From a virus (lineage: Duplodnaviria > Heunggongvirae > Uroviricota > Caudoviricetes), in the IMG/VR virus record IMGVR_UViG_2565956721_000005: a stretch of DNA of 43,002 nt; one strand, written 5' to 3'. Below are positions 25,943-38,469 of this stretch, piece after piece. Position 1 is the first letter of the stretch, and every line of letters starts with the position of its first letter. The notes beneath the pieces are model-generated. The model was not told where the DNA came from and ran no database searches. It saw only the letters and a program-made list of their open reading frames with translations. The translations under genes and the position numbers were made by a program.

Positions 25943-25954
25943 GCCCACAAGAAA

Positions 25955-26190
25955 ACCCCTCCGGAGAGGGGCTAAAGCCGCGTATCTGTATCATCATGCA
26001 CATGGTGCCGGGTGCCTCCCGGTGAGTTCAGCCCGGTGCCACTAAACCCGCGTCATTCTCGTTTTGATAATCAGAGATTATACCGTCACCAGTCGCCCCT
26101 CCGCTCAGGGGGATTCACCATGCGAAATTTTTTTAACAAATGCCCAGTCTGACAGGCAACTGTCAACTTACTGAATTGTGAGCAACATAG
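25955..26190 (-). repeat. direct repeat unit 1 (about 215 bp) with conserved GC hairpins, ending in a minus-strand intrinsic terminator (25955-25978)
   Basis: Shares long identical blocks with 26440-26655; terminal CCCCTC-TCCG-GAGGGG followed by TTTTCTT. Confidence 0.75.
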
Positions 26191-26227
26191 CATTTAACGG
26201 GGAACCTGTTTTCTGCAGTAAAAAGGC

Positions 26228-26255
26228 CCACCGGAGCGGATGGGCCTGGAAGGAT
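26228..26255 (-). terminator. intrinsic terminator between the two repeat units
   Basis: Minus strand GGCCCATCCGCTCCGGTGGGCC followed by TTTTTACTG. Confidence 0.5.
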
Positions 26256-26439
26256 AGCGGTCATGTGATGCCGGTTTCCCGGTAACTCAGCACCGGTATC
26301 TGAGTCAACGTTTTCTCTACTGGGTCATTTCCGATACGCCCTGCCTGCTGACAGGCTTTCATCACATCTGAAAATATAGCACCCTGACTGATACTGTAGT
26401 ACCTAAGGTTCCAGAAACTGTGATGTATCCGGCACAGAA

Positions 26440-26655
26440 AAGCCCCTCCGGAGAGGGGCTGGAGAGTGGCGCTATGTGCCATTGCATGGTGCCGGGTGCC
26501 TCCCGGTGAATTCAGTACCAGCACCTGAATCCGCGATTATCCCATATACCTACTCGCTGATTGCCCCTCCGCACAGGGGGATTCACCATGCCAGTTTCTT
26601 TTAACAAACTCCCCGCAAACCAGACAACAGTCAACCGCCTGAATTGTGAGACATT
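26440..26655 (-). repeat. direct repeat unit 2, paralog of 25955-26190, ending in a minus-strand intrinsic terminator (26443-26466)
   Basis: Conserved blocks GGTGCCGGGTGCCTCCCGGTGA, CCCCTCCGC.CAGGGGGATTCACCATG, CAGTCAAC..CTGAATTGTGAG; terminal CCCCTCTCCGGAGGGGCTTTTCT. Confidence 0.75.
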
Positions 26656-26695: not shown

Positions 26696-26772
26696 TGGCG
26701 CGTTGTACTGGATTCGAACCAGTGACCGATTGCTTAGAAGGCAATTGCTCTGTCCGGCTGAGCTAACAACGC
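26696..26772 (-). tRNA. argO: tRNA-Arg, anticodon UCU (reads AGA/AGG); argO-like
   Basis: Cloverleaf read by hand: acceptor GCGTTGT, anticodon loop CTTCTAA, T-arm ACTGGTTCGAATCCAGT, 3' GCCA. Confidence 0.85.
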
Positions 26773-26785
26773 AGGATACAGATAA

Positions 26786-26862
26786 TGGACCGCCTTCGGG
26801 GACCCGAACTCCGCGCAACCAGCTTCGAAGGCTGGCGCTCTTTCCTGATGAGCTAATGGCGG
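26786..26862 (-). tRNA. argN: tRNA-Arg-like, anticodon UCG; non-canonical T-loop (TTCGGGT) and one acceptor-stem mismatch
   Basis: Cloverleaf read by hand: anticodon stem CCAGC/GCTGG, loop CTTCGAA, D-loop with GG, 3' ...GGTCCA. Confidence 0.6.
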
Positions 26863-26869
26863 TATGTGA

Positions 26870-26945
26870 TGGTGGCCCTTGCTGGATTTGAACCAGCGAC
26901 CTGGCGATTATGAGTCGCTCGCTCTCACCACTGAGCTAAAGGGCC
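26870..26945 (-). tRNA. ileZ: tRNA-Ile2, anticodon CAU (lysidine type, reads AUA); ileZ/ileX-like
   Basis: GGCCCTTTAGCTCAGTGGTGAGAGC...CTCATAA...GGTTCAAATCCAGCAAGGGCCACCA; near-identical to recalled E. coli ileX. Confidence 0.85.
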
Positions 26946-31148: not shown

Positions 31149-31315
31149 CGGTTGTCTCTGCTGGCGCAGCAGGTGCCAGTTGTTCAGGCTGGCGTGCGAA
31201 TTGTAAACCAGAATGCCAGGAAAAAACAAAACCCGCCGAAGCGGGTTACGTGCGGGTGCGTTGAGGATGCCTGACACATCAGAGGTGGCGAGGGATTTCT
31301 CCCTCGCCGGGTCTC

Positions 31316-31471
31316 TTACTCCTCAGGTTCGTAAACTGTGAAGACAGCGACCTCCGTCTGGCCGGTTCGGATTCGTACCTCGCAGAGGTCTTTCCTCGTT
31401 ACCAGTGCCGTCACTATGACGGTTAAACAGATGACGATCAGGGCGATTAACATCGCCTTTTGCTGCTTCAT
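31316..31471 (-). CDS. hokD: Hok-family type I toxin (HokD/RelF-like)
   Basis: 51 aa MKQQKAMLIALIVICLTVIVTALVTRKDLCEVRIRTGQTEVAVFTVYEPEE; hairpins at the mRNA 3' end and in the upstream leader as in hok loci. Confidence 0.9.
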   Translation of the reverse strand: MKQQKAMLIALIVICLTVIVTALVTRKDLCEVRIRTGQTEVAVFTVYEPEE

Positions 31472-31686
31472 AGCCTGCTTCTCCTTGCCTTTCGGCACGT
31501 AAGAGGCTAACCTAGATTTGCCGTTCATAGATTGAGCCTCAGATTAATGTTAAGCGTCTTGCAGGACGCGTAATATTAACTGGGGCTTTTCTCTATCTGC
31601 CTTTGGTGTTCATGCCTGAGGCAGATAGCCTCAAGCACCCGCAGCAATTCTACTTAACTCCCGTCACCTCGCCAATATAAAATCAA

Positions 31687-31977
31687 TCAGAAAGGCGATC
31701 CATAAGAACAACAGCAAGACAATAAATTGCCATTACAGCCGCAATAGCTAGCGCACATTTGAGAACCAGCACGACAACCTCCTGTATTGGACGTACACCA
31801 GTTCTGATAAATATGAGGCTGTCTCATCATTGATTCAATATAACTATTGGGTATAGTTTCTGTGATTTTGTTCTGTAGAAATGGAACACAACAACCAGTC
31901 ACCACCAGCACTTCTTTAAATACGCCAAGTCCGACGCAAGCTAACCTTCTAGTCCGCTTTGAGCGATCTGCAGACAT
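31687..31977 (-). CDS. hypothetical Cys-rich 96-aa ORF at the distal end of the AT-rich cargo (may be non-coding)
   Basis: ATG with GAAGG RBS; C-terminus ...WCTSNTGGCRAGSQMCASYCGCNGNLLSCCCSYGSPF. Confidence 0.3.
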   Translation of the reverse strand: MSADRSKRTRRLACVGLGVFKEVLVVTGCCVPFLQNKITETIPNSYIESMMRQPHIYQNWCTSNTGGCRAGSQMCASYCGCNGNLLSCCCSYGSPF

Positions 31978-32088
31978 TGCTAGCAGCCTTCTGTGTGAAT
32001 TCTCAGGGAGCAGGTCGGCATAGCATCACGTTGAGGCTCTTACCCTACTTGTTGACACCAACCCTAACTCCACAGACTGATTCATAAA

Positions 32089-33090
32089 TTAGTAATCTGC
32101 GTGTTTCGCACTTTTCAGAAATGCTTTCATATTTTCATTAGGTCGCTCAATTTCGAAGTTACTTCCATATAACTCTTGTAATTTTGGCCATAACTTACTT
32201 AATAACCCTCTCCTGCGATAAAATGGATGTATCCAAACGGTAGATAGGTACGGAGAATTTGCATTTGAATTGTTTATTGTGACCAGCCCAACTAAACATT
32301 GTCGATAACCACTATTATCCATTGATTGTATTTCTTCGACGAATGGATACGCGATTACATCAGTCCAACCATGATCGGTTGTATCCCATTGCATTCCGTC
32401 ATGACATTCCTTCGACTGATAGCGGCGTAAAGCTACACACGCGAGCTTTTGCCAATCTGGAGAATTAATTGTGATCTCTTCATCGTATGACGCGCCTATT
32501 GGAGCGGGTATTGGTCTGATTAATCCAGCATGGCATTCATCATAGAACTTCATGTTTCCCTCAGAAACGTTGTGTACGTTGGGTTGCTCCATGTGTGCGC
32601 CATTCAAAAATAGCTCTGATAGTAGTGTATCTACACTGTAATCTTTATTGATTATTGTCGGCTTAGAGTTTTTCTTATTAAGGCCGCGAGTAACGATTTT
32701 TTGATCAATGTTAACAACATGGAATAATCCGTCGGGGAGGCTAGCGAACCACGATGGGGCATCGGACCAGAATAGCATGCCTTTTGTACTTCTTAAGAGT
32801 TTAATTAAGTTAATACAAGCTTCTTCACTAGTCTTGCCGTTGATGCGAAGTATGTTAGGACTAAAGTAATATTCATCCATATCAGGGAATGCAGCTTCGC
32901 AAAACTCCTGTACATAATTTAGCACCTGGATTCTACAGAGATCATCATAGCTGGTAATAACTAAGGGGGTATCTTCATTACTATTATGATTATCAATAAT
33001 GCAATCTATAGCGAGACTTACTGCTTTGCGTATCACTTCAGTTGAATCTAACGACTCTAAAAATTTTGTCTTTCGTGTGCGAATATCCAT
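32089..33090 (-). CDS. cargo protein B (333 aa), unknown function; possible GNAT-like motif at the C-terminus
   Basis: AT-rich ORF 15 nt after gene A; C-terminal ...CLVGLVTIN...VWIHPFYRRRGLLSKLW... resembles a GNAT acetyl-CoA-binding core (weak). Confidence 0.75.
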   Translation of the reverse strand: MDIRTRKTKFLESLDSTEVIRKAVSLAIDCIIDNHNSNEDTPLVITSYDDLCRIQVLNYVQEFCEAAFPDMDEYYFSPNILRINGKTSEEACINLIKLLRSTKGMLFWSDAPSWFASLPDGLFHVVNIDQKIVTRGLNKKNSKPTIINKDYSVDTLLSELFLNGAHMEQPNVHNVSEGNMKFYDECHAGLIRPIPAPIGASYDEEITINSPDWQKLACVALRRYQSKECHDGMQWDTTDHGWTDVIAYPFVEEIQSMDNSGYRQCLVGLVTINNSNANSPYLSTVWIHPFYRRRGLLSKLWPKLQELYGSNFEIERPNENMKAFLKSAKHADY

Positions 33091-33105
33091 GTATGACCTG
33101 CGCTA

Positions 33106-34128
33106 TTAAAATTCATGAATGAACGGTTTGTCATCTGGTTGCAAAATGGTGGTTTTATTCGTTGCTACATTTAAACTGTTGTAGAGCATAATTGCCAGGT
33201 TCGATGCATTTTCAATCAGCGTTTCAAGATCCTGGTCTGTAATCACTACGAGGTTCCCTTCTTTATCCTTTCCACCACGATGCACTAAGTGATTTCGATT
33301 GAGGGTTGCCAATTCAATAGCTTCTATCGGACAGTCTTTTTGTACTTTTATATCGAATGTAGCTTCATAGCGGTCGATTACCTTTTTAGTGCTATGCCAG
33401 CTTGCACTGATCAAGTGTTCCTTGATTGACCTGATTAGCTCTCCCCTAATTTTCTCGATGGGTTCACCCTTGAAAGGCAACGCAGCAATATCTTTGCTTA
33501 CTTTAAATTCAGTCTTACCTTTTTCTATACAATTGGCTATGTAGACATCATCTTTCTCTATAGAATTAATGAATAGCTCAACATAAAGCGTTTCCAAAGC
33601 TGTAATAACATTCGTGTAGAGCAAACTAAGCAAGTGGTTTTTTTGCTGTTGTTCAGTTTTATCTTTTGCAAGTTTTTTTATTTTATCGATATTATCAATG
33701 AATTTTAAATACGGATTACCGGAAGACGTTACAGCGTCGTAGATATCATCATCGTACCAATCATCTATATTATTTGAGTTTCCAGACCAGTCAAAACATT
33801 GTGTTTGTAATTCATCTACTAATTCCTCAATATACTCAGATTTAACATATTGACCGAAGATGGATTGTAGTTCTTCGCTCGCATCATACGGCCCGCCATA
33901 TATGTAAGCATAGCCACCTTCTCTACTTTCATACGGACAAGCATTTGCCGGATCTTCAAAGTTTTCAAAGAACCAGTTTTTCATTACTTCGAGTTGATCT
34001 TTTTTGCTTATGTATTTTAAAGATTTTAGTGGAACTTTCTTTCCATTAACCTCGAAAACAATTTTCACGATGTAACGCTCCCTTGTATCAATTGCGCAAC
34101 TATTATACCACAGCGAAATACAGGGCAT
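33106..34128 (-). CDS. cargo protein A (340 aa from ATG at 34128), unknown function; single Rx4H motif (RNHLVH) near the C-terminus
   Basis: AT-rich ORF; strong RBS TTTAAGGAGGCAGGTT before the ATG; ORF track start 34218 is an upstream GTG extension. Confidence 0.75.
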   Translation of the reverse strand: MPCISLWYNSCAIDTRERYIVKIVFEVNGKKVPLKSLKYISKKDQLEVMKNWFFENFEDPANACPYESREGGYAYIYGGPYDASEELQSIFGQYVKSEYIEELVDELQTQCFDWSGNSNNIDDWYDDDIYDAVTSSGNPYLKFIDNIDKIKKLAKDKTEQQQKNHLLSLLYTNVITALETLYVELFINSIEKDDVYIANCIEKGKTEFKVSKDIAALPFKGEPIEKIRGELIRSIKEHLISASWHSTKKVIDRYEATFDIKVQKDCPIEAIELATLNRNHLVHRGGKDKEGNLVVITDQDLETLIENASNLAIMLYNSLNVATNKTTILQPDDKPFIHEF

Positions 34129-34167
34129 AACCTGCCTCCTTAAACTAACATACCATGAGCCAGCAAT

Positions 34168-34191
34168 GTCCGCTATTGGCACAAAGCGGAC
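34168..34191. promoter_or_regulatory. palindrome GTCCGCT-N10-AGCGGAC upstream of the cargo operon (candidate operator)
   Basis: Perfect 7-bp inverted repeat between the 140-aa gene stop and the cargo gene A RBS. Confidence 0.3.
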
Positions 34192-34259
34192 AACCACGCT
34201 AGCTCTACCCTGTGCCACAAAATGTCAATTTGCATCTGAACTAATGCACTTTAATCTCG

Positions 34260-38413: not shown

Positions 38414-38469
38414 TTTCTGGTGACGTTTGGCGGTATCAGTTTTACTCCGTGACTGCTCTGCCGCCCTTT
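38414..38469 (+). ncRNA. dicF: DicF small RNA (ftsZ-targeting sRNA of the dicB operon)
   Basis: TTTCTGGTGACGTTTGGCGGTATCAGTTTTACTCCGTGACTGCTCTGCCGCCC followed by TTTTT; matches recalled E. coli DicF. Confidence 0.85.

Follow-up and report, generated by a model that had tools for sequence, protein, structure and literature searches.

Proteins in which a HEPN domain is fused to the HEPN/RES-NTD1 domain (the MAE_18760/MAE_28990 group, with an example from Klebsiella) were catalogued in 2013 as predicted conflict proteins (Anantharaman et al. 2013, PMC3710099), and in the stand-alone aRES proteins the corresponding N-terminal domain (PF18870) is joined to a RES NADase that converts NAD+ to ADPR-1P (Osterman et al., bioRxiv 2026, 10.64898/2026.01.28.702374). 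Defense by aRES, with growth arrest, has been shown experimentally, and its genes lie in defense islands with no operon partner (10.64898/2026.01.28.702374). HepS, encoded by the lambdoid Salmonella prophage Gifsy-1 in the accessory slot that follows its replication genes, is a HEPN protein that stands alone: it carries a canonical Rx4-6H motif, has no inhibitory partner and is inactive by default, and it acts as an abortive-infection anticodon nuclease, cleaving tRNA anticodon loops when activated by a structural protein of the phage tail tip (Sargen et al., Nature 2026, PMC13043305). Here we describe a two-gene cassette, encoding proteins referred to as A and B, in a 43,002-nt stretch of viral DNA (Caudoviricetes; IMG/VR record IMGVR_UViG_2565956721_000005) that is a Qin/Rac-like lambdoid prophage and was analyzed over its full length (hereafter, the window). 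A is a HEPN superfamily member with predicted RNase activity, and B is, on the basis of modeling, a GNAT-fold protein of an uncharacterized family. The explanation that we favor, with a little better than even confidence, is that A–B is an abortive-infection cassette that protects the lysogen against other phages, in which the effector A would be a self-inhibited sensor-RNase.

A follows the aRES plan without being a member of aRES. The two share a two-domain layout of an N-terminal domain assigned to PF18870 followed by an effector domain (toxic in aRES, predicted to be so in A), the lack of a conserved partner (B having been gained secondarily in the E. coli lineage) and defense-type neighbors; A differs in carrying a C-terminal HEPN domain in place of RES, in its GNAT neighbor, and in a PF18870 score of its own that lies under the cut-off, such that the assignment comes from the family as a whole. 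With HepS, A has in common that it is a solo-type HEPN protein with an Rx4H site in a lambdoid accessory slot, although there is no sequence relationship between them. The architecture of A is that of the HEPN/RES-NTD1 fusions catalogued among the MAE_18760/RiboL-PSP-type HEPN families. The 2013 catalog consists of computational predictions only, describes no GNAT association or cassette structure, and uses the term GNAT in unrelated passages only (PMC3710099). An earlier reading of this DNA from its letters alone (the sequence-only reading) had recognized neither protein; the architecture of A had already been catalogued, so A is less novel than was supposed. The interest of the locus comes less from A than from its GNAT partner and the cassette system, and the A–B combination, its recurrent arrays with known defense systems and the palindrome grammar set out below are not described in the literature searched.

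Gene models and domain architecture of protein A

The cassette contains two minus-strand open reading frames (ORFs) in the same orientation, 33106-34218(-) and 32089-33090(-, 333 aa), with a gap of 15 nt between gene A and gene B, as the sequence-only reading had described (Table 1). The first ORF spans 370 aa from its first GTG, and the protein had been read as 340 aa from ATG 34128, behind a strong AAGGAGG ribosome-binding site (RBS). Comparison of cassette copies overturned that gene model. The upstream ATG is frame-shifted in L005, followed by a stop in L092, replaced by ATA in L098, L101 and L102, and absent from L103 and L199, while the order TGTGGTAyAAT, then AAGGAGG/AAGGGAG, then GTG is kept. 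Homologs from many genera start at the equivalent MK(I/V)VF, and PGAP also places the start at GTG 34068. Given that the upstream ATG is unconserved while the GTG with its own RBS is conserved, AAGGAGG is not the RBS of gene A, and by this comparison gene A likely starts at GTG 34068 and encodes 320 aa. The TGGTATAAT element upstream is plausibly the extended -10 promoter element of the cassette; a consensus promoter scan in which both hexamers were required did not report it. Gene B would be translated from its own start and co-transcribed with A.

The N-terminal domain of A was matched by PF18870 at E 2.5e-4 for the 340-aa reading, under the Pfam cut-off, and at E 1.9e-4 for the 320-aa protein (22.2 bits vs a cut-off of 27.4). 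In an alignment of 59 homologs, down to 26% identity, 55 matched PF18870 at E<=0.01 (best 1e-6, mostly under the cut-off). The domain bears a strongly conserved signature, WF..NFEDP..PYES.EGGY.YIYGGPYDA, and is also found with PIN domains (P0117; L073) and with RES; we presume it to be a sensor or regulatory domain.

The C-terminal part of A is an all-alpha up-down helical bundle of the HEPN type, and within it the RNHLVH motif (33280-33297) contributes residues R258 and H263 which, together with R264, are invariant in all 59 homologs, as are W224-H225 and E159. PF18735 (HEPN_RiboL-PSP) matched 29 of the 59 (best 7e-11), with no match to the window protein at E<=0.01. Fold and motif together place A in the HEPN superfamily, in agreement with the hint that the sequence-only reading had taken from the Rx4H motif. 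The AlphaFold2 (AF2) model of A had a predicted local distance difference test (pLDDT) score of 90. Foldseek of this model against the PDB gave no match, and profile searches of A against PDB sequences gave chance matches only. The PADLOC search of A and B, which had been proposed as a check, matched no catalogued defense model (for A against PADLOC-DB v2, chance-level matches only, E>=0.01). PADLOC, NCBIfam and PHROGs were uninformative for A, B and a 96-aa ORF at the cassette edge, the PHROGs that were matched (17908 and 16994) being of unknown function.

Distribution of A and B and the history of their pairing

The A family ranges across Acidobacteriota, Chloroflexota, Cyanobacteria, Desulfobacterota, and Alpha- and Gammaproteobacteria. 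A conserved neighbor of A was sought in 55 loci from many phyla and none was found, from which it follows that A is self-sufficient; the copies of A at 56-74% identity in enterobacterial prophages are also solo. A conserved partner of distant B proteins (<=56% identity, mostly marine, solo) was likewise sought in ~15 loci, and none was found. At roughly >=73% identity, B nearly always has A immediately before it, across the same gap of 15 nt and within a wide variety of flanks, and the A–B unit is kept with its fixed spacer at 83-100% DNA identity in Escherichia, Serratia and Aeromonas. In a neighbor-joining tree of A, the cassette A genes formed one clade whose sister was a solo gene of Aeromonas taiwanensis, with Yersinia, Pantoea and others outside, and in the corresponding tree of B the A-linked clade was nested among solo lineages. 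The trees show a single origin for the pair: A and B, both of families that mostly stand alone, came together one time, in an Enterobacterales/Aeromonas lineage. Their union is recent and the two are inherited as a unit, but neither gene strictly needs the other.

Complete E. coli genomes carry the cassette in 209 of 5,426 cases, and in four of these A is truncated and B intact. Three B-only loci in the cassette clade are products of internal deletion of A, which spared the 5' end of the cassette and the final 60-80 nt of A (breakpoints, in window coordinates, 34092/33169, 34096/33167 and 34135/33147); A has been lost in this manner, with B and the 5' end kept, at least twice (L099/L146 and L147). 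No B-less A nested in the cassette clade was found among the metagenome loci. That A is lost more often than B could reflect either the cost of an effector or a weak dependence of the antitoxin kind. Two of the E. coli loci bear the marks of insertion sequences (IS). AHB12 (L206), one of the four with a truncated A, has lost the 5' half of A together with the prophage early region through an IS1-linked deletion and keeps B intact, and in SF-173 (L205) an IS1A inside B splits off its GNAT half, with A and its upstream region intact; a 187-aa N-terminal fragment of B could still be made in SF-173.

The loss pattern bears on the proposal that A–B is a type VII-like toxin–antitoxin or addiction module, in which A would be a constitutively dangerous HEPN RNase toxin that B neutralizes, and which might fire on infection. 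B would in that case acetylate A, for instance on a lysine of the active site or of the dimer interface, or bind A through its N-terminal domain, and the module would stabilize the prophage or mobile element. We judge this quite unlikely. It would account for the tight operon with a 15-nt spacer invariant in all cassette copies, for the HepT-like fold of A, for the position of relBE nearby in Qin, and for the asymmetric loss, in which A has gone and B has stayed (L099/L146, L147 and the four E. coli genomes) with no B-less A in the cassette clade. However, it accounts poorly for the sister and outgroup A proteins (56-76% identity; Aeromonas, Yersinia, Pantoea and 11 viral contigs) and all distant A proteins, which have neither B nor another partner, for the deep relatives of B that have no A, and for SF-173, in which A is intact with B interrupted, although an N-terminal fragment of B could remain there. 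Strict co-occurrence of toxin and antitoxin was not observed, since A is solo in 50+ loci and B in ~15, and they are paired in one clade only. A toxin-first gene order is also atypical for enzymatic-antitoxin systems. In the type VII system HepT-MntA, the nucleotidyltransferase MntA AMPylates the toxin HepT and mntA is encoded upstream; in A–B the partner is instead a GNAT protein whose gene lies downstream, the two genes were paired recently and can do without each other, and A has an additional N-terminal domain.

Defense neighborhoods and a model for A–B

Known defense genes recur around A and B. In L096, Eleos (LeoA/LeoBC) lies upstream of A–B, which is followed by a 356-aa ORF and Gabija (GajA E=0, GajB 2e-264); in L102 Gabija comes first and then A–B; and in Serratia grimesii (L005) A–B is followed by a gene for a McrB-like AAA_5 ATPase. 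Aeromonas copies of A–B lie beside Thoeris (ThsA SIR2/STALD and ThsB TIR), AbiEi and Xre-MbcA antitoxin genes. Solo A genes are found near SIR2 (3e-208), capP, type I and III restriction–modification genes and PD-T7-5, and solo B genes after a P4-type (P4-like) primase gene and beside AAA_13, HerA-like and GmrSD-like genes. This context, with Gabija, Eleos, Thoeris and McrB-like neighbors and with A–B and Gabija in the same arrays, supports the defense or toxin role that the sequence-only reading had proposed for the operon, and makes A–B very probably a module of phage defense.

The abortive-infection reading is built on the two gene models and protein folds, on the conservation of catalytic-type residues, on the phyletic distribution, and on the cassette ends and defense neighborhoods, and it follows the precedents of aRES, with its PF18870 N-terminal domain, and of HepS. 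From these we infer an RNase activity, a trigger, an RNA target, growth arrest, a promoter and any role for B, as follows. A horizontally mobile, self-promoted 2.24-kb cassette in the slot between the replication/DUF977 genes and hok/sok would supply A as the effector and probably also as the sensor. The HEPN/RES-NTD1 domain would keep the C-terminal HEPN RNase switched off as long as no infection cue is present, the RNase site (Rx4H-R) would be formed across an A dimer, and activated A would cut cellular RNA, with tRNA or mRNA the likeliest substrates, whereupon growth would stop. B would be an acetyl-CoA-dependent acetyltransferase with a private N-terminal domain, and may provide a second independent defense or accessory activity or be a non-essential modulator of A.

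Several points weigh against this model. The role of B is its least certain part: the motif-A glycine is not found in every B protein, such that acetyl-CoA binding is not assured, and we know of no established defense system that uses a GNAT of the B kind. The window proteins themselves lie under the Pfam cut-offs, A for PF18870 and B for PF00583. The defense neighborhoods are qualitative guilt by association, without a matched control set, and a literature search for the accessions of A and B found no relevant paper. The prophage slot also holds non-defense cargo (QueH and a BCCT transporter), hence slot position alone proves little.

If A is an infection-triggered RNase, the NTD1-plus-effector design known from aRES extends from NAD+ depletion to RNA cleavage, and A would join HepS as the second solo HEPN protein with which a lambdoid prophage arms its host. 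The carriers belong to widespread pathogenic E. coli lineages, including S88, UTI89 and avian pathogenic E. coli (APEC) O1. For the GNAT partner, a defense role or regulatory acetylation would be a new activity in phage immunity.

Protein B is a predicted GNAT-fold protein with a private N-terminal domain

When 1.84 billion representatives were searched with profiles, residues 1-175 of B matched solely B-family members and fragments, and residues ~177-333 were related to unnamed stand-alone proteins of 150-170 aa. The AF2 model of B had a pLDDT of 90 and a predicted template-modeling score (pTM) of 0.82, and its C-terminal half matched HAT1, Esa1/MYST, ESCO1, SSAT, AAC and RibT by Foldseek with probabilities of 0.96-1.0. 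PF00583 scored 19.9 bits on the window protein (residues 264-311), vs a cut-off of 20.7, and matched 17 of the 43 homologs in the B-family alignment at E<=0.01. The GNAT-like stretch that the sequence-only reading had picked out near the C-terminus (VWIHPFYRRRGLLSKLW) was borne out by these matches, with Foldseek probabilities of ~1.0 to acetyltransferases. The C-terminal fragment of B separated by IS1 was named 'GNAT family N-acetyltransferase' by PGAP. W286, H288, P289 and R292 are invariant in the alignment. Motif A (Q/R-x-x-G-x-G/A) reads R-R-R-G-L-L in the window protein, with the final G/A absent, and its glycine is replaced in several members (RRKRKL, RRKQKL) in which R292 is retained.

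Profile searches of B against PDB sequences gave chance matches only, and PADLOC-DB v2 gave no match to B. Local hhalign comparisons among the N- and C-terminal sub-domains of A and B revealed no homology between any two of them; B is accordingly neither an evident tandem GNAT nor a mimic of A. An acetyltransferase encoded in the corresponding slot of phage Evi was considered as a relative of B and rejected as unrelated. A 320-aa variant of B in E. coli (P0147/P0148, L151) is identical to B from residue 133 on and differs in its N-terminal 118 residues; its locus has no A, and it is probably a recombinant or deletion derivative.

By its fold and structural matches (HAT1, MYST/Esa1, ESCO1, SSAT and AAC), B resembles both protein lysine acetyltransferases and the GNAT toxins TacT, AtaT and ItaT. 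It departs from those toxins in its private N-terminal domain of 175 aa, in lacking a small antitoxin gene next to it and in having a partial motif A. We consider it very improbable that B is a toxin that acetylates aminoacyl-tRNA in the manner of TacT, AtaT and ItaT and that A counteracts or regulates it. The GNAT fold would suit such a toxin, as would the relationship of the GNAT half to stand-alone proteins of GNAT-toxin size (150-170 aa), but B persists partnerless in several genomes, the intact catalytic-type HEPN motif of A would be unexpected in an antitoxin, and no antitoxin gene of the ribbon-helix-helix (RHH)/DUF1778 type lay upstream of the one short relative whose context was examined.

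Another explanation is that the two genes are unrelated passengers, A being a solo defense or RNA-metabolism protein and B an acetyltransferase that benefits the host in ways unconnected to phages, through small-molecule, antibiotic or protein acetylation or as a fitness factor of extraintestinal pathogenic E. coli (ExPEC) or APEC. Both families are ancestrally solo, B persists alone under the cassette 5' region, its structural matches include aminoglycoside and polyamine acetyltransferases, the slot also holds metabolic cargo (QueH and the BCCT transporter), and the carriers include S88, UTI89, APEC O1 and IHE3034. We nevertheless regard this explanation as unlikely: A–B is kept as a unit with a fixed spacer at 83-100% DNA identity in many contexts, and solo B genes also occupy defense-type places, after the P4-like primase gene and beside the AAA_13, HerA-like and GmrSD-like genes.

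The cassette is a compositionally foreign module with palindromic ends

The cassette (31952-34191) has a G+C content (GC) of 39.0% vs 51.1% for the window and is the lowest-GC 2.24-kb stretch of the 43 kb in windowed analysis, in keeping with the AT-rich block seen in the sequence-only reading. Gene A has a GC of 36.1% and gene B of 39.1%, with a third-codon-position GC (GC3) of 35-36%, and the neighboring genes (DUF977, replication, DUF968 and Q) are at 49-55%. Across 727 non-overlapping windows, GC averaged 52.1% (standard deviation 4.2) with a minimum of 43.2%. The cassette is compositionally foreign.

Identical copies of the locus are present in E. coli S88, UTI89, APEC O1, IHE3034 and ATCC 11775. 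The flanks are common to phages Evi and Tritos, which hold different genes in the slot, and the earlier suggestion of foreign cargo in a variable prophage slot is supported by this comparison. Homology with Evi and Tritos stops at 31966/31978 and restarts at 34164/34165, and homology with A–B copies elsewhere runs from 31951/31952 to 34191/34193. Both ends carry 24-nt palindromes of the pattern GTCCGC-N12-GCGGAC, type-1 at the 5' end and type-2 at the 3' end; the strict pattern has a single occurrence in the window, against a chance expectation of 0. Between them the ends make up an imperfect inverted repeat of 46 nt (31939-31984 vs 34159-34204, 74% complementary; ~79%, as judged by eye, for the 33 nt that lie within the cassette), with GTCCGCTTTG at both tips. 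In a junction alignment of 12 contexts, the 5' end reads GTCCGCTTTGTGCCAATAGCGGAC and then ATTGCTGGC, and the 3' end GCTAGCAAT and then GTCTGCAGATCGCTCAAAGCGGAC.

Table 1. Positions of the A–B cassette, its genes, domains and signals, and the adjacent hok/sok genes in the window
Feature	Position	Strand	Basis or remark
Mobile cargo cassette (promoter, A, B and both palindromes; 2,240 bp)	31952..34191	-	sharp homology ends, >=12 unrelated contexts
Type-1 palindrome GTCCGCTTTGTGCCAATAGCGGAC, cassette 5' end	34168..34191	-	also flanks other cargo
Putative extended -10-like promoter element TGGTATAAT	34102..34110	-	read from sequence; TGTGGTAyAAT kept in most copies examined
RBS AAGGGAG, spacer and GTG start of gene A	34066..34084	-	sequence, PGAP, homolog starts
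Gene A (320 aa, WP_014639476.1; HEPN/RES-NTD1 then HEPN domain)	33106..34068	-	
HEPN/RES N-terminal domain 1 (PF18870), A residues ~14-112	33733..34029	-	Pfam, family alignment
Helical HEPN domain, A residues ~119-308	33145..33714	-	
Catalytic-type motif R258-N-H-L-V-H263-R264 (Rx4H-R)	33277..33297	-	invariant residues, 59 sequences
Gene B (333 aa, WP_000354966.1)	32089..33090	-	
B N-terminal alpha/beta domain, residues 1-175, B family only	32566..33090	-	profile search, AF2
GNAT acetyltransferase fold (predicted), B residues 176-333	32092..32565	-	Foldseek, Pfam, profile search
VWIHPFYRRRGLLSKLW: strand beta4 and motif-A-like loop of GNAT core	32188..32238	-	conserved residues; Pfam match 264-311
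Type-2 palindrome GTCCGCTTTGAGCGATCTGCAGAC, cassette 3' end	31952..31975	+	
sok RNA	31466..31640		Rfam, 113 bits
hokD	31316..31528		Pfam E 6e-22

The cargo of Evi and Tritos is bounded by the same two palindromes. In a palindrome scan of viral contigs, the counts from which refer to the 120 loci listed and are thus lower bounds, at least 50 adjacent pairs consisted of a type-1 palindrome (loop TTTGTGCCAAAA) and, on the opposite strand, a type-2 palindrome (loop TTTGAGCGAGAA) at a spacing of 0.57-5.9 kb. These pairs enclose at least 18 different cargo types, mostly AT-rich, and at least eight tandem junctions (type-2, an 18-nt linker, type-1) join modules head-to-tail. Relaxed palindrome matching, which gave 0 matches in shuffled controls, delimited four arrays: L102 (Gabija, A–B, a 262-aa ORF and further module(s)), L098 (a 314-aa ORF, A–B, and 146-aa and 334-aa ORFs), L096 (A–B, the 356-aa ORF and Gabija) and L005 (A–B and the McrB-like gene). 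Arrays of this kind are seen in Enterobacterales, on IncF plasmids as well as in prophages and chromosomal islands. Another cassette, with a single 269-aa ORF, is found with its ends on conjugative IncF plasmids of Escherichia, Klebsiella and Shigella, and other palindrome-bounded cargo includes a DUF4365/pPIWI-associated nuclease trio and the non-defense BCCT transporter gene. The palindrome-bearing loci are L002, L003, L096, L098, L101, L102, L005, L208-L327 and L330.

The same prophage slot in many strains, including E. coli MS20654 (L329) and many APEC genomes, holds queH (epoxyqueuosine reductase), with the right-hand palindrome cut down to its outer half. In strain A20 (L328) the slot is nearly empty, with ~250 bp of non-coding DNA between the palindromes. 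The sequence-only reading had equated the slot with that of relBE in Qin; relBE does lie directly upstream of hokD in K-12 Qin, but on the hokD side of the boundary palindrome, so the two slots are adjacent and not identical. The left limit of 31687 that it had given the operon did not hold either. That limit was set by the 96-aa Cys-rich ORF at 31687-31977, of which only the last 26 nt overlap the cassette end; we discounted this ORF as probably not a gene, as most of it is flank sequence that phages with different cargo share, and PGAP leaves it unannotated.

The stems of the palindromes are often broken by one-sided changes, and what we claim is a conserved sequence element and not a hairpin structure. 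Each 24-nt element has an arms-plus-spacer layout like that of a tyrosine-recombinase core site. A related palindrome, GTCTGCTGTGAGCGAAGAGCAGAC, with matching changes in both stem halves, lies ~100 nt upstream of a marine solo B gene at 46% identity (L118:5881-5904), and hints that the palindromes are older than the A–B pairing. Near a few arrays there is a gene for a 200-aa FimB/FimE-like tyrosine recombinase annotated as 'site-specific integrase' (L330:5051-5653, L323, L212 and, in part, L146:8466-8777). This protein is a candidate for the enzyme of cassette exchange.

Two known types of mobile element were considered for the cassette and rejected. Terminal inverted repeats are present as in an IS or a miniature inverted-repeat transposable element (MITE), but no direct repeats indicative of target-site duplication flanked the ends in the 12 contexts and no transposase gene was found inside the cassette. 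As for integrons, the ends have no attC cores (RYYYAAC/GTTRRRY), the two palindromes differ, and there is no integron integrase in the window flanks. The cassette does resemble integron cassettes and pdif (Xer) modules in that short imperfect palindromes delimit promoter-bearing or promoterless cargo, single or in tandem, that hops between replicons; it differs from both in that the sequences are not attC or dif, each module has two different palindromes, and there is neither an integron integrase nearby nor an established recombinase. A literature search for the palindrome strings found nothing relevant. Movement would have occurred either by site-specific exchange or by recombination at the conserved boundary sequences.

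A broader proposal is that A–B belongs to an undescribed Enterobacterales cassette system, in which modules are swapped by site-specific exchange between prophage slots, IncF plasmids and chromosomal islands, and that the GNAT protein controls or complements the HEPN RNase by acetylating the RNase, RNA or a phage target. Many of the modules in the arrays with 18-nt linkers would then be anti-phage (Gabija, McrB-like, DUF4365/pPIWI-nuclease and A–B). Taken as a whole, this proposal seems to us doubtful. Were it true, acetylation would represent a new enzymatic logic for HEPN defense. The palindromes, if they constitute a recombination system, would explain how small defense modules hop among prophages, plasmids and islands and would offer a sequence handle for new defense systems, which could be searched for between palindromes.

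Flanking genes and RNAs

Upstream of the cassette are cI/cro-like and YdaT-like genes, a replication-organizer gene and then DUF977; downstream are the hok/sok module, then DUF968, RusA and Q. The hok/sok type I toxin–antitoxin module (31316-31640) is complete and lies immediately downstream of the cassette, separate from it. Just downstream of hokD, a sub-threshold Rfam match to the Hfq-binding small RNA (sRNA) isrK (31226-31307; 27.8 bits, where the gathering score is 50 bits) overlaps a hairpin resembling a terminator (31230-31247). Downstream of Q there is a prophage tRNA cluster (26696-26945) with Arg-UCU, Arg-UCG and a CAU tRNA (Ile per PGAP), adjoined by two copies of the STnc100 sRNA (25943-26620). 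Phage tRNAs can counter tRNA-cutting defenses; a link of the cluster to a tRNA-cutting HEPN protein was considered, and the evidence favors neither side. The DicF sRNA (38415-38466, 76.7 bits) lies in a dicB/ydfABC region typical of Qin-like prophages, and a match to the IS009 RNA family (1378-1576, 224 bits) was found near the left end of the window.

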